From a phage, in sequence record PZ349761.1: a stretch of DNA of 45,774 nt. One strand, 5' to 3'. The notes below the pieces were generated by a model. That model worked only from the letters and a program-made list of their open reading frames with translations. It was not told the DNA's origin and made no database searches. Positions 1 through 45,774 of the stretch are shown here, in pieces; the first letter of the stretch is position 1, and each line of letters starts with the position of its first letter. A program made the position numbers and the translations under genes.

Positions 1-480
1 CCATACAAGTTGATTTTGATTCTGGCTGGGATCGTTTTGCGCATACGCGTTATAAAAGTTATGCCGTGTGGATGAAATCACCCTCCGCAGGAATCGCGTA
101 CGTCTATAACGCAGAATTACGCAATGGTTACATAATAATATCTATATATATCAACCATTTAGTAATATTATTATTATTATTATTATATACGTGTATATAG
201 TGTAGATAGTGGATATTGGATATTGCGATAGTTTTCTATGATTTTTTCCTACACTTGTAGGAATGGTATTACATTGTAGGAATAAATAGGCATATATGGC
301 CCAATTCACCATGAAAGCTGGTGTACAAGCTGTACACGATTTTACATTGAGCTATATCTGGGGTTTGGAGCTGAAAAGCGTAAATAAATTGAATACAACC
401 ATAAATAACACTTGATAACATGTAACCTCAATGATATTATGCACCCATCTTAACGAGAGCAACCAATCAGGAGTATATCT
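1..480. repeat. AT-rich noncoding control region with (TTA)6 microsatellite (167-187), iteron-like short repeats (190-235), CCTACA-ct-TGTAGG palindrome (250-263) and ACGCGT-core palindromes (45-50, 95-100)
   Basis: No credible ORF; about 90 bp (115-200) is a direct repeat of 27207-27295. Confidence 0.6.
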
Positions 481-1002
481 ATGTCAAATCGCATTCAACC
501 AGTAAGCCTTGGTGATGTTATCCGCTACATGGCTAAGCAGGCACTTAAGGCCGACAACAGGACTTTTCATGTTCCAATAAATCTTATAGCTCGCCAGGTT
601 TACGGGCTAACGTCTGATGATATGGGCCGAATCAGCGCTGAAGATCTCGAGGCTGGCGGCAAATACAGTTTGGCAAAGTTGAAGGCTTCATATGTCTCTA
701 ACACAGTTGCCAGGATGTCAGAGATTCAGGAGGCGAACGTTCGGGCTAAGCTGTCAATCAAGGACGGCGACTTCGGTGATGATGTTGACGTTCGATGCGC
801 ATACATCACATTGGTTGATGGGGCAATACAGACAGGAAAGAGAGTTAAGGCCAATAATCAGGTTGCTGAGAATGCGGTGAGCGACTTCAAGGATAGAATC
901 CTTAAGCTAATGCCATCAGTTACTGATCTTGAAGGTGATGAGATTACAGGAGCCATCAAGGCAATCAAGATGTACCAGGAAATGATTAAGGAGGCAAAAT
1001 AA
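481..1002 (+). CDS. hypothetical protein (173 aa)
   Basis: Complete ORF directly after the control region; stop overlaps next start; no recognisable motif. Confidence 0.5.
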   Translation: MSNRIQPVSLGDVIRYMAKQALKADNRTFHVPINLIARQVYGLTSDDMGRISAEDLEAGGKYSLAKLKASYVSNTVARMSEIQEANVRAKLSIKDGDFGDDVDVRCAYITLVDGAIQTGKRVKANNQVAENAVSDFKDRILKLMPSVTDLEGDEITGAIKAIKMYQEMIKEAK

Positions 1003-1532
1003 TGGGGATGTTTGATTTTAACGAAGATAAGCTGACTAATGATGAGATTATGAAGATTTCCATGCGGGATGGACTTCCTCCGCTACGGGTTGCGATCAAT
1101 GCTAATGGATATCGGCAAACTCAACGCCTCTGGGGCAAGCCTGACGCGTCAGAGGTATACATAGATGAAGCGAAGGGCGTTCTGATTAAGCTGATCAGGA
1201 AAATGGCAATGAACGGAAATGGAGTATTGGGGGTGAGGTCTTTATACGAAACCGCACGAAAAGTTAAGCCATTTGAGGGTCGTAATGGAATCATGGTGCG
1301 CATTAAGGACGAGCTCATCCCAGCTCTAGAGGAAATGAATCTAGTTTGCCTCATTGGCGATAAAATTTATGTCCACCCGGCAATCATTGATGAGTATTGG
1401 CAGCCTAACTTCAAAACTTACGAAGGTGAACATGCTAGTAGACTACCATACCACTTGCGGTACAGCGAGGAAGAGGTTGAGGTGGCAATTGAGTTCTATA
1501 GGAAAGCTAAATCACTACTGAATGGTAAATAG
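1002..1532 (+). CDS. truncated paralogue of the 527-aa P-loop protein (N- and C-terminal segments only, ATPase core missing)
   Basis: N-terminus MFDFNEDKL..LPPLRVAINANGYRQ and C-terminal block G..RSLYE.ARKVKPFE..IKD..CLIGDK.Y..P match 42117-43700 (-) but the central ~370 aa with the Walker A motif are absent. Confidence 0.6.
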   Translation: MGMFDFNEDKLTNDEIMKISMRDGLPPLRVAINANGYRQTQRLWGKPDASEVYIDEAKGVLIKLIRKMAMNGNGVLGVRSLYETARKVKPFEGRNGIMVRIKDELIPALEEMNLVCLIGDKIYVHPAIIDEYWQPNFKTYEGEHASRLPYHLRYSEEEVEVAIEFYRKAKSLLNGK

Positions 1533-26802: not shown

Positions 26803-27047
26803 TATTTCCACTCCTTACTTCCGTGATCAGCTACTGAGCCACCATAACCGCCGCCAGCCTTGCTTTCAATGCCAGCGTAGCGAATATCAACCTCACCAGC
26901 CGGAACAACTACACCGCCTTTCCACTTAGCTACGCACACGCCGTTTGCTTGTGTTGCACACCACCCATCAGGTCGAGGACCAGAAGAACAACCTACTGTC
27001 ATGATTACTGCTGCGGCGATGATTGAAAGTTTGATTAGGTTAGTCAT
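26802..27047 (-). CDS. small lipoprotein, candidate superinfection-exclusion protein
   Basis: [22 protein letters not shown] signal peptide with lipobox; start set to ATG 27047 downstream of minus-strand cassette. Confidence 0.55.
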
Positions 27048-27095
27048 TTTGTATTCCTCATTAAGTTGTTTCGTTTCGATGGAGTAATAGTACAA

Positions 27096-27593
27096 CCGTC
27101 TAGCCTGAATGTCTTTAGCTATTCGTGCTAATGTTTACGCGTAACCGATGTAACTCGATGTATACAATCTCATCCGCGGAAAATGATATACGCACTGTTA
27201 CGCCAACTTACGCATTTGTTACATTAAAATATCTATATATATCAACCTTTTACTCTTATTATTATTATTATATATATTACTGTGTATATCATGTAACTAC
27301 TTCTATAGAGTGTTCCGGTTATAATTTTAATATCATGTGATTTTATACAGTATTGCACGGCAGCTATACCAATGCACCATCAGCAATAAATGATATACAC
27401 GATATACACGCCGGTTACATTGAGCTATAGATGGGCTGAGATGCCAAAAAACGTAACTAATGGCAATGCCTACACGGAATTACAAGGATTTACGCGTAAA
27501 CTTAAATCAACGATTGGCAAAACCAATTGGACTGGCTACGGTGCTGAATATATAGTTACCTCATCGAAATCAAAAAACCAGAGAGATACATAA
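27096..27593. repeat. second AT-rich repeat-laden control region: (TTA)5 at about 27256-27271, TTTACGCGTAAA palindromes (27134-27144, 27489-27500), GATATACAC direct repeat (27400-27418)
   Basis: 27207-27295 is a roughly 85 percent identical direct repeat of 115-200; track ORFs here look spurious. Confidence 0.6.
27114..27132 (-). promoter_or_regulatory. conserved box variant (minus strand reads ATTAGCACgaataGCTAAA)
   Basis: Downstream on minus strand: TACTAT, CCATCGAAACGAAAC (27071-27082), ATG 27047. Confidence 0.55.
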
Positions 27594-27788
27594 ATGACCT
27601 ACTACATTATCAAAGAGAAAAACAACGCACTGTTCGGCGACTGCTACTTTGGAGGTGAAGCCGGTTACACTACAGATAAAAATGAGGCAGACCGATTCGA
27701 AACTAAAGAAGATGCCAAATCTTTACTGATCGGATACTTTACAGAGGAAGAGTTGAAGTCTATTAAGATTGTTAAGGTTAAGGAGTGA
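27594..27788 (+). CDS. hypothetical small protein (64 aa)
   Basis: ORF preceded by TTGGAC-N18-TATAGT and leader CCTCATCGAAATC. Confidence 0.45.
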   Translation: MTYYIIKEKNNALFGDCYFGGEAGYTTDKNEADRFETKEDAKSLLIGYFTEEELKSIKIVKVKE

Positions 27789-27791
27789 AAT

Positions 27792-27953
27792 ATGAAGATC
27801 AAGGTTTTTATAAATAGAGAAGAGATGGAGCAACTAGGTGCGAACACTGATGTTGAAGTTGCTAAAGTAATAACCTATGACCTAAAAAATAGTGATTGCT
27901 ATGACGAGTTTCCATATCCTGATTTTCAAGTTATTGTTAATGTAGAGGATTGA
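27792..27953 (+). CDS. hypothetical small protein (53 aa)
   Basis: Short ORF with RBS AAGGAG; read by eye. Confidence 0.35.
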   Translation: MKIKVFINREEMEQLGANTDVEVAKVITYDLKNSDCYDEFPYPDFQVIVNVED

Positions 27954-28923: not shown

Positions 28924-29388
28924 ATGAACAAAGATAGCTGGCAGACTCCTTTAGAGTTATTCAAACAACTAGATGATAAATACAATTTTGAGGTTGACGT
29001 ATGCGCCAGTCCAGACAATGCTCTTTGTGAATATTTTTGGACTGAAGATGATGACTGCCTACAACAGGACTGGGGTGATGGCAACGGTTTCGTCTGGTGT
29101 AATCCTCCATATAGCAATCCATTGCCATTTGTCGAAAAGTGCCAAGAATATGGTTATGCAGTCATGCTATTGAATCAGGACACATCAACAAAATGGGCTA
29201 AGGTAGTCTTTGAGAAAGCTTCAAAGGTTATACTTTTATCAGATAGGGTTAGGTTTATAAATCCATTAACATTGGAGGTTGGAAAGTCAAACCCTAAATG
29301 TCAGATGATTGTGGTTTTCGACAAGCTCAGTAACCCTGGTGTTGATATGCGCTGGTGCTCAATAAAGGATATTCATAAGCACATATAA
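28924..29388 (+). CDS. dam: DNA N6-adenine methyltransferase (phage Dam-type)
   Basis: Catalytic motif IV NPPY present as WCNPPYS; small single-domain size typical of phage Dam. Confidence 0.75.
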   Translation: MNKDSWQTPLELFKQLDDKYNFEVDVCASPDNALCEYFWTEDDDCLQQDWGDGNGFVWCNPPYSNPLPFVEKCQEYGYAVMLLNQDTSTKWAKVVFEKASKVILLSDRVRFINPLTLEVGKSNPKCQMIVVFDKLSNPGVDMRWCSIKDIHKHI

Positions 29389-33264: not shown

Positions 33265-33287
33265 TAAAAAAACCTCCCGAAGGAGGT
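33265..33287 (-). terminator. rho-independent terminator of the minus-strand primase operon
   Basis: Minus strand reads CCTCC-ttcg-GGAGG followed by T7. Confidence 0.65.
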
Positions 33288-34213
33288 TAGTCTAGTAATT
33301 CGCTCGCCTTGTATATTCGCTTTCTTATTCCTGATTTGAAGTGGTTATCATTATTTGGCATTACAACATCAAGATTGCGATCGTCAGCAACGGCGAGTAA
33401 ATCAAAATCGCTGCGAGTACAAGCGATGCGTAACTTGTAGTTTCTAAGCGCGTAAGCAACCATTTCCATGTTGTAACTGGAGTGGCAAACAAGCACACAG
33501 CGGTTCCCAGTAGCAATGTGAACGCGATAGCCATCAATGAAATTATCGACCAGATAAGCGTACTCATCATCCTTAAAGGAACCAATAACAGAAACAGACT
33601 GGCGAGTATAATCTTTTGCAGCATAACTAACATCTCCCTCTTCATTGATAAACATTACGTTGCACATCTCTTCTGATATGCCGTCACTATAAGCCATAAA
33701 GCACGGAACTGCGTGGATTAATTCACCTGATTTCGTCCTGCCAACATCAAAACCGAACTCGCTATAGATACCCTCGTATGTACTGAGAGGAGTTGATTCT
33801 ACTCTTTCCGTCCTTTCCATTATCTCTAAGCATCTTTCGTGATCAATCTGAGCGCCCATTTTGTATGGTGATGTTCTTGAAGCTCTTTTGTTTGCTTTTG
33901 ATATAACCTCTACTGGAACGAGATTCAGCCAATCACCAAGCGTATCTATTGTTTCACTATAACTCATTCCAGAACACTTCATTACCCAACCAACACCAGA
34001 ATCATTTCCACACTGGTTGCATATTGCTGCGCCATTTCCCTTTTCTTGACCTAACTCATCAGTGAAGCGAAACCTATCCTTGCCAAAGCAGTAAGGGCAC
34101 GGACCATGCTTCTTGTTGAGATTCTCCTTTGTCCATCCCAGGTGCGACGAGTAGAAAGCACTCCACATTCCCTTCATTTTTGCTATCACTTCATTTTTAT
34201 CATGGTGACTCAT
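33287..34213 (-). CDS. putative DNA primase (zinc-binding plus Toprim-like)
   Basis: CPYCFGKDRFRF...CNQCG zinc-ribbon-like N-terminus; start set to ATG 34213 with RBS GGAGG; adjacent to helicase. Confidence 0.5.
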   Translation of the reverse strand: MSHHDKNEVIAKMKGMWSAFYSSHLGWTKENLNKKHGPCPYCFGKDRFRFTDELGQEKGNGAAICNQCGNDSGVGWVMKCSGMSYSETIDTLGDWLNLVPVEVISKANKRASRTSPYKMGAQIDHERCLEIMERTERVESTPLSTYEGIYSEFGFDVGRTKSGELIHAVPCFMAYSDGISEEMCNVMFINEEGDVSYAAKDYTRQSVSVIGSFKDDEYAYLVDNFIDGYRVHIATGNRCVLVCHSSYNMEMVAYALRNYKLRIACTRSDFDLLAVADDRNLDVVMPNNDNHFKSGIRKRIYKASELLD

Positions 34214-34268
34214 AGTTACCTCCGCAAACAATAAAGGCACTATACATAATGCACAGTGCCATTGTTTA

Positions 34269-34748
34269 TCAAATCGTGCTGTTTTTCTCTTTCTTCTTCT
34301 GGTTCTCTAATTTAATTTTGCGCCAGGAGCGACATTCAGGCTTTGTGGCTAGTTCAGCCTCAGTAACTACGCGCAGCATGTGACGTTTTTTGCAACGAAG
34401 CGTCAATGGCTTTCCGTTACCGTCGAATTGCAGGTCTGGCCTGCAGAATGTAGCGCGAAAACCTTCTCCATTTCGCTTATAGTAGTTGTGCGAAAGTTGA
34501 GCTCCACGTGCAGAAATCATACCACGCTTAAACCATTCCTCTACAGCCTGTGGCGTTACCTTTAACTGCTTCGCTATATTCGCCTTTGTGCCGAAGAAAT
34601 CAAGAACCATCTCCAGCCGTGCTCGTAAGCCAGCCCTTACTTCATCTTTTAATACGTAGTAGCCTGAAGGTCGTTTACGTTGTTTTTTGTCTTTGGTGCG
34701 GACGGTTCCGTTATTACCGTTAATTGTTCGTTTGTCGACTGAACTCAT
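34269..34748 (-). CDS. putative HTH DNA-binding protein (transcriptional regulator candidate)
   Basis: Basic N-terminus, helix-turn-helix-like IAKQLKVTPQAVEEWFKRG; first gene of minus operon at a divergent control region. Confidence 0.5.
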   Translation of the reverse strand: MSSVDKRTINGNNGTVRTKDKKQRKRPSGYYVLKDEVRAGLRARLEMVLDFFGTKANIAKQLKVTPQAVEEWFKRGMISARGAQLSHNYYKRNGEGFRATFCRPDLQFDGNGKPLTLRCKKRHMLRVVTEAELATKPECRSWRKIKLENQKKKEKNSTI

Positions 34749-39001: not shown

Positions 39002-39084
39002 CGAGCCTAATACTAGTAGCATCGTTACCACTGTTTAGCTTTACCATCTTATACTTTATCGTAATGAATTAAGGAACTTCTATA

Positions 39085-40215
39085 ATGGCAACCGCAAAAA
39101 TCACCAACGAACAATTGCGCGAAGAGTTAGCAAATGGCATGACCAACAAGGCAATCGCAGAGAAGTACGGAATGAACATTCGCAACGTTGAATTGCGTCG
39201 CAGTAAATTAGCTAAACAAGGCGAAGGGCATGGTCGCGATGTAAGCAACTTAATCCCTCAGGGCTATGCAGTTAAAGGCGTCTCCAGCTTAATTGGTGCT
39301 GATGGCGAGATTAAGCAACAGTGGGTTAAATCAGATATCGACAAGGAGAAGCAAGAAGAGATGATGCTTCAGGCAATTCAGGCCCTAACTGATGAGTTGC
39401 CGCGTGAGAAAGTTAAAGCCTTAAGGGTTGGTTTGTTTGAGGACACTTTAAGCCTTTACCCCGTATTCGACCTTCACATTGGCGCAATGGCTCATCATGC
39501 TGAGTGCGGAGAGAATTATAGCACCGAAATCGCTGAACGAGTCCTTAATGACTACTTTGATTATGCGGTTGCAAAAGCCCCTAACTCAAAGAGGGCTGTA
39601 TTGCTGATTGGTGGTGACTTCCTTCACTCTGACGGAATGGAAGCTGTAACTCCAACGAGTAGACATATTCTTGACCAAGATAGCCGCTATCACAAACTTG
39701 TTTACGTAGCAGTGCGAGCAACTCGCCGAGCAATTAGTAGAATGCTTGATAAGCACGCCGAGGTTGAAGTTCAGATTATCCCAGGAAATCACGATCTCTC
39801 AGGTATGATTTGGCTTCGTGCTGCAATGGCAGCTTTCTATATGGATGAGCCTCGAGTTAGTGTTGATACGTCCCCAGCTGCGCTTCACGTAACGCAATTT
39901 GGGAAGACGCTGCTTGGTTACTGCCATGGGCACGAACTCAAAAAGCCTGATACACGACTATCAGCACTGGCTCGTGACCATCGAAAAGCATTTGGTGAAT
40001 CAGAGTATGTTTACACCCATTCAGGCCACTACCACCATCAAACTATTACGGAAGGAAATCTGGGTATTGATGAATCACACGGCCAGCTTGGAGCGAAAGA
40101 TGCGTACAGTGCTAACGGAGGTTATCGCTCTTACCGACAGGCTTCGGTGATAATTTATAGTCCTGAGTTTGGTGAGATTGGACGATTTACTTGCCGACCT
40201 GAAATGTTTAGTTAA
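39085..40215 (+). CDS. calcineurin-like metallophosphoesterase with N-terminal HTH-like domain
   Basis: Ordered motifs DLHIG, GGDFLHSDG, PGNHDL, CHGHE, HSGHYHH match the metallophosphatase signature; N-terminus has helix-turn-helix-like NKAIAEKYGMNIRNV. Confidence 0.6.
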   Translation: MATAKITNEQLREELANGMTNKAIAEKYGMNIRNVELRRSKLAKQGEGHGRDVSNLIPQGYAVKGVSSLIGADGEIKQQWVKSDIDKEKQEEMMLQAIQALTDELPREKVKALRVGLFEDTLSLYPVFDLHIGAMAHHAECGENYSTEIAERVLNDYFDYAVAKAPNSKRAVLLIGGDFLHSDGMEAVTPTSRHILDQDSRYHKLVYVAVRATRRAISRMLDKHAEVEVQIIPGNHDLSGMIWLRAAMAAFYMDEPRVSVDTSPAALHVTQFGKTLLGYCHGHELKKPDTRLSALARDHRKAFGESEYVYTHSGHYHHQTITEGNLGIDESHGQLGAKDAYSANGGYRSYRQASVIIYSPEFGEIGRFTCRPEMFS

Positions 40216-42116: not shown

Positions 42117-43700
42117 TCACCCCAGCAATCTCGGATTAATGTAAACTTTATCACCAATCAGGCACGTATAGTTTTTCTCATCAAGCATTGGCAGTAAGTG
42201 ATCTTTAATCTTCGTCATCACTCCAGCCTGAGCCTCGAACGGCTTAACCTTTCGCGCCGCTTCATACAGTGAACGAATACCAACTACGCCTTTACCGTTC
42301 TTACCTTGCTTGATTAGTATATCAATCAACTTGTTCATCTCGGCATTGTCTCCAGCGTGACCGGCGGCGTTAGCGGATGACAGGTAAGTCTTGCTAAGTT
42401 CCTGGAAGATAATGACGGCTTCTTGCATCGTATCTAACTCAATTTCTCTCGACTTCTGCGGACTACCACCGTTAGGGTTGAACCAGTTACGCACAGTGTG
42501 AAGTACCGCTGCAATCCTTATTGCCTGTTTATCAAACTTACCCAAAGCGCCGCGCAACATTGTGTGTGAATACTTTCCTCCGTCAGCAAGGTGAGGCTCC
42601 ATCTCCTGGCGTGCTCGGTTGAGATATTTCATTGCAGAGTTACTCACTGTCAGCTTAACATCTTGCTCATTCATTATTTCGTGAACCAAGCGGAAGTAGT
42701 CAGCCTTCAGGCCACCATCAATTGGCTCGTATGTTGAATCTCCATTCTCATCAACAAAAACACGCTCACCCAGGAATGACTTCTCGCGTACAAGCAGAAA
42801 ACGTTCCGACACGCCGATTCCACGAGCGCCCGCGTTCATGATCGCATTTATTGTTTCATCCTGCGCAATTACCGAGATGCAACCCATAGCAACGAAGCTC
42901 ATGTTGTTCTCTGCGTTTGCACGCGCGATAGATACGTTACCCGCATCCCATGCCTTCAGTACAAGCTCGCTGTTCGTTTTCTTTGAGCCATCACCATAGG
43001 TCATGCCCAGAAGTGAGTTCACGCTCGTTGCCTCGTCAGAGATAACAGCGAAGTTTCCCTGGCGATTGTTGATTCTGGCTAGACCTTCAGGTGTTGTATC
43101 GGACACGGGGAATACTATGTCACAAAGTTTCTCTAGCTTTTCCTCAAGTTCCTCTTTCTCCTCAAAAAGTGAGGCCATCTCTGATGGTGACTTTTCCTGC
43201 TTCATCTCCTTGGATAATGCAGATAGTTTAGCCATTATTTTCTTGCGCTCGCGCTTTCGCACTTCATTAAGCCGCTCAGTCTCAGCGATCATTGGAGCAA
43301 TAGAAAGTGAGTTGATTGCTGATTTACCAGTCGATGGCGGCTGGCTTGTTACGACGTACAGCGAGGTTGGTTGCTGAGTCCCGTGATATTCAACAGTAAA
43401 TCGTCCAAGCATGGCGGCAGAAATACACCCCAGAAAGTGCATGTATGCGGATGACTCTGGAAACTGGACCGAACGAGCAATATTGGCTGAAAGTTTGCCA
43501 ACAACATCAATATCATTACCGAGTGAGATTACTGGATACTTGTCATTTGCCGCATCAATCTCGACAGGAGCTTTCCAGAATGATTGAGACTGACGATAGC
43601 CATTAGCATTAATAGCCACTCGCAGGGGTGGGAGGTTGTCTGCGGCAGCAATTGCCATAACCTGTTCAACAGATAGTTTATCTTCGTTGAAATCAAACAT
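42117..43700 (-). CDS. P-loop NTPase of unknown function (full-length paralogue of 1002-1532)
   Basis: Walker A-like PPSTGKS; N- and C-terminal segments shared with the 176-aa protein at 1002-1532. Confidence 0.6.
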   Translation of the reverse strand: MFDFNEDKLSVEQVMAIAAADNLPPLRVAINANGYRQSQSFWKAPVEIDAANDKYPVISLGNDIDVVGKLSANIARSVQFPESSAYMHFLGCISAAMLGRFTVEYHGTQQPTSLYVVTSQPPSTGKSAINSLSIAPMIAETERLNEVRKRERKKIMAKLSALSKEMKQEKSPSEMASLFEEKEELEEKLEKLCDIVFPVSDTTPEGLARINNRQGNFAVISDEATSVNSLLGMTYGDGSKKTNSELVLKAWDAGNVSIARANAENNMSFVAMGCISVIAQDETINAIMNAGARGIGVSERFLLVREKSFLGERVFVDENGDSTYEPIDGGLKADYFRLVHEIMNEQDVKLTVSNSAMKYLNRARQEMEPHLADGGKYSHTMLRGALGKFDKQAIRIAAVLHTVRNWFNPNGGSPQKSREIELDTMQEAVIIFQELSKTYLSSANAAGHAGDNAEMNKLIDILIKQGKNGKGVVGIRSLYEAARKVKPFEAQAGVMTKIKDHLLPMLDEKNYTCLIGDKVYINPRLLG

Positions 43701-45554: not shown

Positions 45555-45607
45555 ATCTATCTCCTCGTTTTGATGAGTTAACTATATCCTCCATGACCAC
45601 TAATGTC

Positions 45608-45625
45608 TTTAGCAAAAAGTGCTAT
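45608..45625 (-). promoter_or_regulatory. conserved palindromic box (minus strand reads ATAGCACtttttGCTAAA)
   Basis: Minus strand downstream: TATAGT, CATCAAAACGAGGAG, ATG 45554. Confidence 0.55.
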
Positions 45626-45774
45626 TCGTTAGATTTATGTATTGTTGCAGATATTGCAATGATTCTCATGACTATTGCACATATAGCAATATTGCTTCAG
45701 ATGCAATGATGTTTTTGATTGTTGCGAAAAGTGAAATGAAGTTGGGAGTGAGCGAATGAAAGATGGATGGACTA

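Follow-up and report, generated by a model that had tools for sequence, protein, structure and literature searches.

The window analyzed in this work, the 45,774-nt phage DNA of sequence record PZ349761.1, contains two related intergenic modules approximately 27 kb apart, each composed of an AT-rich center flanked by short wTACRY units in opposite orientations. By analogy with known origins, these may be origin-type initiator-binding modules that are read by the MCM-like helicase of the phage, a reading to which we give about an even chance. The modules are located in region A (positions 45556-45774 plus 1-480) and region B (positions 27096-27593). The first-pass annotation of this DNA had noticed that region B resembles the window start and proposed either two origins or paired binding arrays for the same factor. 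Paired arrays for one factor are well supported at the sequence level, as the same phased wTACRY units surround an AT-rich center in both regions. Two origins is the interpretation favored after comparison with origins of the Staphylococcus aureus pathogenicity island (SaPI) type and with distant phages that have the same helicase family, although one of the copies could be an auxiliary site.

Similarity between regions A and B

The window is the genome of an Rtp-like coliphage (Drexlerviridae, Braunvirinae) with a gene order as in T1. The top match to the 1 kb around region B is Veterinaerplatzvirus T145P1 (91%), with Rtp, Msk, JulesPiccard, and others next in order. The JulesPiccard genome carries the window start at an internal position, where it runs on unbroken from the window end, indicating that the window is a complete, circularly permuted genome. 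It therefore has two long divergent intergenic regions, of which A spans the window ends.

A repeat search aligned 104-204 with 27195-27295 at 78% ungapped identity and a second block, 342-387, with 27415-27460 at 76%, and the colinear similarity extends over approximately 345 bp, from 44-387 in A to 27136-27460 in B. Positions 138-156 and 27229-27247 share the exact 19-mer ATATCTATATATATCAACC, for which the chance expectation is 0.01. Local alignment of 1-480 with 27096-27593 gave a score of 72 compared to 15.6 ± 2.9 for shuffled sequences (z ~20). In this null, region B was permuted in 10-bp blocks so that the local AT-richness was kept, and AT-richness alone therefore does not explain the similarity. 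The direct repeat described in the first-pass annotation is thus real, and the alignment dispels the concern raised with it that the likeness might be low-complexity AT-richness with no positional conservation in related genomes, since the similarity is positionally conserved in these genomes. Several details of that description needed correction. The identity over 115-200, given as about 85%, is 79% (68/86), and the register of +27091 places the copy in region B at 27206-27291 rather than 27207-27295; the tandem GATATACAC pair is found at 27392-27409 and not at 27400-27418. The 12-bp palindrome TTTACGCGTAAA at 27489-27500 (0.09 expected) was found as described, as was its near-copy, which has one mismatch and occupies 27134-27145. 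All three features, the palindrome, the near-copy, and the GATATACAC repeat, can therefore be traced to a single unit, wTACRY.

AT-rich sequence yields many spurious repeats, and open reading frames (ORFs) have been annotated over 27390-27593 in Rtp, CEB_EC3a, and JulesPiccard. Both facts would fit an explanation with no specific function, namely a chance likeness of AT-rich spacers, a neutral old duplication, the N-terminus of rtp46 (27390-27593), or a small RNA gene. We consider this very improbable. In phage Rtp, the ORF at 27390-27593 is joined to the following gene and annotated as rtp46. This ORF lacks a conserved start, and the open frame upstream of the ATG at 27594 ranges in length from 0 codons to 95 in close relatives, which also show frame-breaking indels of 1 and 2 nt. 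Variable columns are distributed over the three codon positions as 38/33/38, compared to 2/2/6 in the adjacent real gene. With no conserved start or frame and no excess at the third position, we rejected this ORF as a protein-coding N-terminal extension of rtp46. A scan of 26900-27800 on both strands against Rfam 15 gave zero matches at E<=1. A and B are both noncoding, as had been described for region B, and have no match to a known RNA family. The shuffles, the codon-position test, the Rfam scan, and the conservation described below, where the layout is positionally conserved in 14 genomes, rule out the chance, coding, and RNA explanations.

Architecture of the modules

The core modules span 98-205 in region A and 27188-27296 in region B. 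Their parts, together with the arrays outside the cores, are as follows.

Region A, 98-133, plus strand: inner-left iterons GTACGT (98), TAACGC (107), TTACGC (117), and TTACAT (128)
Region A, 134-190, no strand: AT-rich center with the 19-mer (138-156) and (TTA)7, the most AT-rich 60-bp window of the genome (0.90)
Region A, 191-205, minus strand: inner-right inverted units GTGTAT (191) and GTGTAG (200)
Region A, 321-347, plus strand: second array GTGTACAAGCTGTACACGATTTTACAT, three units 10 bp apart
Region B, 27134-27165, no strand: outer-left array with the palindromic unit pair TTTACGCGTAAC (27134-27145), ATGTAA (27148), and ATGTAT (27158)
Region B, 27188-27224, plus strand: inner-left iterons ATACGC (27188), TTACGC (27198), TTACGC (27208), and TTACAT (27219)
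Region B, 27225-27281, no strand: AT-rich center, a candidate DNA-unwinding element, with the 19-mer (27229-27247) and (TTA)5 (27256-27270)
Region B, 27282-27296, minus strand: inner-right inverted iterons GTGTAT (27282) and ATGTAA (27291); the minus strand reads GTTACAT GATATACAC
Region B, 27392-27420, plus strand: second array, GATATACAC GATATACAC (27392-27409) and TTACAT (27415-27420)
Region B, 27489-27500, no strand: palindrome TTTACGCGTAAA, two overlapping inverted TTACGC units, kept as wYACRYGTAA in relatives

The four direct units of the inner-left array of module B are phased by 10, 10, and 11 bp, the length of one helical turn. The center of this module is approximately 57 bp long, a length that is nearly fixed among orthologues, and is flanked by an inverted repeat (27183-27194 and 27281-27292) with 92% complementarity. 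Its AT fraction is 0.88 over 60 bp and 0.81 over 100 bp compared to a genome mean of 0.557, and the two core centers are the two most AT-rich 60-bp and 100-bp windows of the genome. ATCAACC and TGTATAT are 35 bp apart in both centers. The two core modules are also the densest wTACRY clusters in the genome, with 16 and 9 units per 450 bp against a mean of 2.0 (standard deviation 1.8). When the AT-rich center was excluded from a k-mer test, the top enrichment was found for TTACAT (27-fold), TTACGC (19-fold), and GTTACA (30-fold), and the top k-mer in the equivalent regions of T1 was GTTACA (36-fold).

The outer-left array of region B contains minus-oriented units within 27139-27163 at a spacing of 9-10 bp and is nearly invariant in 16 relatives. 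The second array of B, with three direct units approximately 10 bp apart, is paralogous to 321-347 in region A; it is strongly kept in 14 Braunvirinae and Nouzillyvirus-like relatives and has diverged in Sd1 and e4/1c. Beyond the core modules, palindromic unit pairs (TTACGCGTAA) adjoin the flanking promoters.

Conservation across relatives

Relatives of the B core were found by blastn in 134 phage records and those of the A core in 81. We aligned both cores for 14 phages, comprising Braunvirinae, the Rogunavirinae Sd1 and e4/1c, Nouzillyvirus p111, and T1. One layout, with four direct wTACRY units, an AT-rich center, and two inverted units, is present at both loci of all 14 phages from four lineages. 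The 13 non-T1 phages supply 26 copies, in all of which the left units keep their TAC, the right units keep their GTA, and parts of the center are likewise invariant; the length of the center is almost fixed. For the B core, 10 of the 13 relatives (Braunvirinae and one Nouzillyvirus) show 95-97% identity, more than is seen for the neighboring genes, and the 1 kb around it has 81-91% identity across relatives. Copy B is better conserved than copy A.

The identity between A and B is 0.743 within genomes and 0.733 between genomes, and the partner from the same genome is rarely the best match. There is thus no signal of concerted evolution or gene conversion between the two copies, a possibility that we rejected. 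A and B have not been homogenized; they form an old pair in which selection maintains each copy. The AT-rich center has two forms, TCTATATATATCAACC and a palindromic CCTTATATAATAAGG type. The palindromic type is found in both copies of e4/1c (L041 and L034), and Sd1 (L005 and L035) and p111 (L038 and L032) each have one center of either form, in opposite loci. These mixed forms suggest that centers were exchanged between loci or between phages.

The DUF3987 helicase as a candidate initiator

Three genes of the window are relevant to how the modules might be read.

42117-43700, minus strand: DUF3987 helicase of 527 aa, with an MCM-like AAA+ core and a predicted C-terminal winged helix at aa 451-521
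33287-34240, minus strand: separate primase gene (Zn_Ribbon_Prim, phrog_510)
1002-1532, plus strand: mini-helicase paralogue of 176 aa, consisting of the N-terminal 50 aa of the helicase and the winged helix, with no ATPase

The helicase gene belongs to a leftward operon that starts at region A and is headed by module A. Proteins of the DUF3987 family have so far been described no further than as predicted helicases of mobile elements (PMC5862659). As a phmmer search of the helicase against the PDB sequences gave no significant match, structure prediction was needed. The protein is a candidate initiator that would read the iterons. The primase of T1 is labeled in the T1 record as similar to P4-family alpha proteins. 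The mini-helicase is encoded by the second gene right of region A and resembles the helicase at both ends, with 62% identity between its aa 3-57 and aa 1-51 of the helicase and 57% between aa 61-129 and aa 458-526. Its model has a winged helix at aa 56-124. It is conserved, with 329 homologues of approximately 175 aa, and is absent from T1. This protein might act at the iteron sites as a further reader or regulate them.

Comparison with known origins

The closest likeness is to the origins of SaPIs. The Rep helicases of these elements, of superfamily 3 (SF3) or MCM-like superfamily 6 (SF6), are initiators whose C-terminal winged-helix domain (WHD) binds penta- or hexanucleotide iterons, and their origins have 6-12 iterons, half on each side of an AT-rich center and at least two per side in opposite orientations, with the primase gene being separate (PMC9371898). 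In the window, short iterons are likewise split by an AT-rich center at 27225-27281 and 134-190, with four plus units on the left and two minus units on the right in 26 of 26 copies, and with 17 wTACRY units in B and 9 in A, the number of hexanucleotide iterons is also that expected of such an origin. An MCM-like helicase with a predicted C-terminal winged helix is encoded together with a separate primase, and by analogy the replicative helicase itself would act as the initiator. The differences are that two modules are present here at a distance of 27 kb, that the units are phased by 10-11 bp with outer arrays and palindromic pairs reaching into the flanking promoters, and that the host of the modules is a virulent 46-kb siphovirus rather than a satellite.

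Precedents for two copies are found in P4 and SPP1. The P4 ori and crr are separated clusters of direct and inverted repeats, 4.5 kb apart and both needed in cis, that are bound by the C-terminus of the primase-helicase, and two separated clusters of shared repeat units are likewise present in the window. P4 alpha is a single polypeptide with primase and SF3 helicase, whereas here the helicase is MCM-like and the primase separate; in addition, the sites in the window are 27 kb apart and each has its own AT-rich center. SPP1, a pac-type siphovirus of approximately 44 kb, has oriL and oriR, two distant modules of initiator repeats and AT-rich sequence that serve one replication protein. The arrangement of two distant module copies in a pac-type siphovirus is the same, and the repeats are unrelated in sequence and design to the wTACRY modules. 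The initiator of SPP1, G38P, differs in that it is no helicase itself and acts together with a DnaB-type helicase and its loader. Origins with iterons and an AT-rich center for self-loading helicases are already known as a kind.

We also inspected four distant phage contigs with DUF3987 helicases of 35-41% identity. In all four, an AT-rich stretch with short repeats on one or both sides is found within approximately 0.6 kb of the helicase gene or operon, and in three of them (L042, L043, and L046) no other 100 bp of the locus are as rich in AT. In L042 (9230-9620), upstream of the helicase, six copies of GGGGG on the left face eight copies of CCCCC on the right (p 1e-33). In L046 (260-580), also upstream, four copies of TGGGG face five of CCCCA (p 8e-14). 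In L043 (11130-11480), directly downstream of the helicase gene, CCCCAG/CTGGGG was recognized on both sides by eye, and an automated k-mer analysis did not cleanly recover the CCCCAG repeats of this contig. In L045 (1-200), the contig ends upstream of the gene in a (TAA)n ATATA run, which is followed by CTTACAT/CCTTACC, the left side being beyond the contig end. The iteron sequences thus differ from phage to phage. These modules are candidate origins of otherwise unstudied phages. The G-rich repeats of the distant contigs, of the form GGGGGT/TGGGGT, are oriented and located by the helicase operon. A GIPQL motif at WHD helix 3 is common to the two G-iteron phages, which resemble each other more closely in the WHD (0.45-0.49) than in the ATPase body (0.41), a weak signal of covariation.

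A proposed model of initiation and the points against it

In the proposed model, the AT-rich center of approximately 57 bp, which should melt easily, and the oppositely oriented wTACRY iterons around it would form a nucleoprotein module. The C-terminal WHD of the DUF3987 helicase would bind the iterons, as in the SaPI Rep origins, and helicase rings would assemble on both sides of the center. The center would then open, the separate primase would prime, and the host Pol III would elongate. Binding, melting, and initiation are steps inferred by analogy. Module B would be the stronger origin candidate because it is the better conserved and more iteron-rich copy, and module A would be either a second origin or an auxiliary site comparable to P4 crr or SPP1 oriR.

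Several observations weigh against this model. Module A is 1.9 kb from the start of the helicase gene, while the SaPI module is immediately downstream, and module B is approximately 15 kb from the gene and ahead of recombination genes. The units of copy A are degenerate (GTACGT, TAACGC, and GTGTAG), and the left side of module B in T1 has just one clear unit. The helicase model matches generic WHDs only, and MCM-type winged helices often serve protein contacts rather than sequence-specific DNA binding. GC skew mirrors gene orientation and gives no independent origin signal, and the comparative sample comprised four contigs, of which two were judged by eye. Finally, both modules are located between divergent promoters, a position that a purely transcriptional role fits equally. 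It is because of this position, the distance from the helicase gene, and the possibility that MCM WHDs do not bind specific DNA that we put the putative helicase-read origin no higher than even.

A more elaborate variant, in which A and B form one bipartite long-range switch and the helicase and mini-helicase compete for or bridge the iterons, appears improbable to us. Such a switch would link the firing of the origin with early transcription and with the neighboring pac site, amounting to handcuffing-like control in a virulent phage.

Promoters and possible transcriptional control

Both regions are bordered by promoters, and region B lies at the switch between leftward and rightward transcription, as the ORFs and the annotation of relatives show. 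The promoter features are listed below.

27114-27132, minus strand: leftward promoter element of the 21-nt repeat type (reverse complement of ATTAGCACGAATAGCTAAA), member of a repeat family and conserved in 16 relatives
27320-27325, plus strand: perfect TATAAT, approximately 35 bp right of module B, conserved in Braunvirinae and with no good -35
27513-27556, plus strand: rightward sigma-70-like promoter TGGACT-17-TATAGT (27528-27556) with the family leader CATCGAAA
412-440, plus strand: rightward early promoter TTGATA-17-TATTAT with the unit pair AACATGTAAC in the spacer

The element at 27114-27132 forms the left boundary of region B and drives the operon of the Cor-like lipoprotein and DUF6453. 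The promoter at 27528-27556 drives a 64-aa gene, exonuclease VIII, Dam, Erf, and SSB, and that at 412-440 drives a DUF7174 gene and the mini-helicase paralogue. The outward promoters that had been proposed on both sides of region B thus hold in part only, the leftward one being of the 21-nt-repeat type and the rightward one sigma-70-like.

The wTACRY arrays and palindromic pairs could instead be operators or enhancer sites for a phage or host DNA-binding protein, making A and B transcriptional control regions. The AT-rich center would then be an UP element or a bendable hinge, with IHF bound in some lineages, and the sites would co-regulate the early rightward operons (host take-over at A and recombination at B), possibly along with the leftward operons. 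Direct repeats spaced by 10-11 bp are read, for example, by OmpR/ArcA-type response regulators. We regard this explanation as possible but doubtful. In its favor, both regions are exactly between divergent promoters, and unit pairs are found at the promoters: 27134-27145 abuts the leftward element, the palindrome at 27489-27500 is 28 bp upstream of the -35 of the rightward promoter, and AACATGTAAC is in the 412-440 spacer. The two rightward promoters carry no 21-nt repeat and therefore form a separate promoter class. The conserved TATAAT at 27320-27325, which the two-hexamer promoter scan did not call, has the AT-rich center at the position of an UP element, and could be an extra early promoter or one that activates the putative origin. 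On the other hand, 250-330 bp separate the module cores from the rightward promoters downstream, a long distance for ordinary control, and the hits of the promoter scan in the two regions were not above those in shuffled sequences (6 vs 3.9 ± 1.9 and 3 vs 2.9). Promoter-like hits inside the AT-rich center are many and uninformative. A transcriptional role also leaves unexplained the modules of AT-rich center and iterons beside DUF3987 helicase genes in unrelated phages. The two roles could coexist, as origins are often activated by transcription.

The suggestion in the first-pass annotation that host nucleoid proteins bind here is weakly supported. The IHF core consensus WATCAANNNNTTR has only three matches in the genome, of which two are in the centers, TATCAACCATTTA at 149-161 in A and TATCAACCTTTTA at 27240-27252 in B. 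The match is lost, however, in the Rogunavirinae-type variant of the center, being replaced by the CCTTATATAATAAGG type in the B copy of Sd1, both copies of e4/1c, and the A copy of p111, and it is absent in T1; IHF was therefore rejected as a universal center-binding factor. The units themselves drift, from GTTACA/TTAACAC in T1 to TTACGC/ATACAC in Rtp-like phages, though the host is identical, which argues against a host factor as the reader.

The 21-nt repeats belong to a different system. A direct repeat of this length, aaATAGCACnnnTTGnTAAAA, has been described for TLS, T1, Rtp, and Rogue1 (PMC11447400). Like the A/B module, it is found in intergenic regions of the same genome, and one copy bounds A and B each on the left side. 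Unlike the module, it has another motif and is present as single copies approximately 76 nt upstream of many genes. In the window, AATAGCACGAATTGCTAAA elements are found on the plus strand at 1824, 3144, 4027, 4944, 8725, 15828, 29387, 33220, 37255, and 40213, and in reverse complement at 27114, 44540, and 45608. A TATAGT-like -10 follows approximately 22 nt downstream and then a CATCGAAACGA leader. The distance between TTGCTA and the -10 is too large for a -35, and these elements therefore look like activator-dependent promoters. The inverted repeats of Rtp52, reportedly described in the Rtp genome paper, are likewise distinct from the A/B module. A Pfam search of 30 proteins for a further DNA-binding candidate returned the Cro/YdaS-like regulator at 34269-34748 alone, which goes with the 21-nt repeat.

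Two further observations concern the rightward side of region B. A palindrome, ATTGG-N5-CCAAT (27513-27527), overlaps the -35 hexamer of the rightward promoter; it has the design of TAGCA-N5-TGCTA with other half-sites, which suggests a second regulator specificity. In the operon downstream, the gene of a Dam-family N6-adenine methyltransferase (28924-29388, plus strand) is located between exonuclease VIII and Erf, and the methyltransferase of T1 is placed elsewhere (39024-39737 of the T1 record).

The probable pac region

Region A alone contains a further conserved stretch at its left side.

45622-45735, no strand: AGATTTAT and ATTGCA/TTGCAAT repeats over approximately 110 bp, nearly invariant in the Drexlerviridae sampled

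This stretch has six repeats of the ATTGCA/TTGCAAT type, and AGATTTAT is the P22-pac-like motif that was used to assign the pac site of TLS. The T1 record begins inside it, and the PhageTerm terminus of Msk (36,862) coincides exactly with base 1 of the window. The stretch, together with base 1, is probably the region of pac recognition and cleavage; pac is accordingly in region A, left of the shared module, and an array next to the packaging cut is found only here. Region B has no ATTGCA/AGATTTAT array, which speaks against the shared module as the determinant of pac.

This bears on a packaging role, in which the AT-rich module would be an accessory part of pac (a bend or a site of terminase assembly, comparable to lambda cosB with IHF) and B a secondary or vestigial pac. 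Copy A starts approximately 100 bp to the packaged side of the Msk cut and is approximately 200 bp from the start of the T1 record, and PMC8421802 cites a prediction by Wietzorrek et al. (2006) of five ATATA repeats in T1 and close relatives, made in connection with locating pac. Against these, PhageTerm gave a single forward terminus in Msk (PMC8421802), the pac of TLS was assigned to an AGATTT motif and not to an AT-rich module (PMC11447400), and copy B, which is away from the genome end, is the better conserved one. We therefore judge a packaging role to be distinctly unlikely.

Also confined to region A is a perfect inverted repeat at 246-263, TTCCTACA-ct-TGTAGGAA, with a third TGTAGGAA at 275-282. 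Both arms of the repeat change together to TTCTGACA...TGTCAGAA in 12210I, T145P1, and Sd1, and this joint change indicates a hairpin or a site for a dimeric protein.

Implications for the T1 family

T1 is one of the original T phages, and Drexlerviridae, with hundreds of genomes, are common candidates for phage therapy; to our knowledge, no replication origin has been mapped for T1 or any member of the family. The 2024 reannotation of TLS found no iterons anywhere in the genome (PMC11447400). In the literature, we found no usable data on mapped origins or transcription start sites of the T1 family and, leaving the Rtp genome paper aside, apparently no description of the A/B pair. Regions A and B are thus the first concrete candidates for the origin or origins of the T1 family.

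If the helicase-read origin is correct, the question of the T1-family origin would become directly testable at defined coordinates, and annotators would have reason to drop ORFs over region B, such as the N-terminal part of rtp46. Modules with an AT-rich center and inverted iterons could then be used to find origins in unannotated phage genomes. The bipartite switch, if true, would imply a general iteron code for the uncharacterized DUF3987 helicase family. For the helicase-read origin, the consequence would be that DUF3987 proteins are self-loading, iteron-reading, MCM-like initiators in phages of Gram-negative bacteria.

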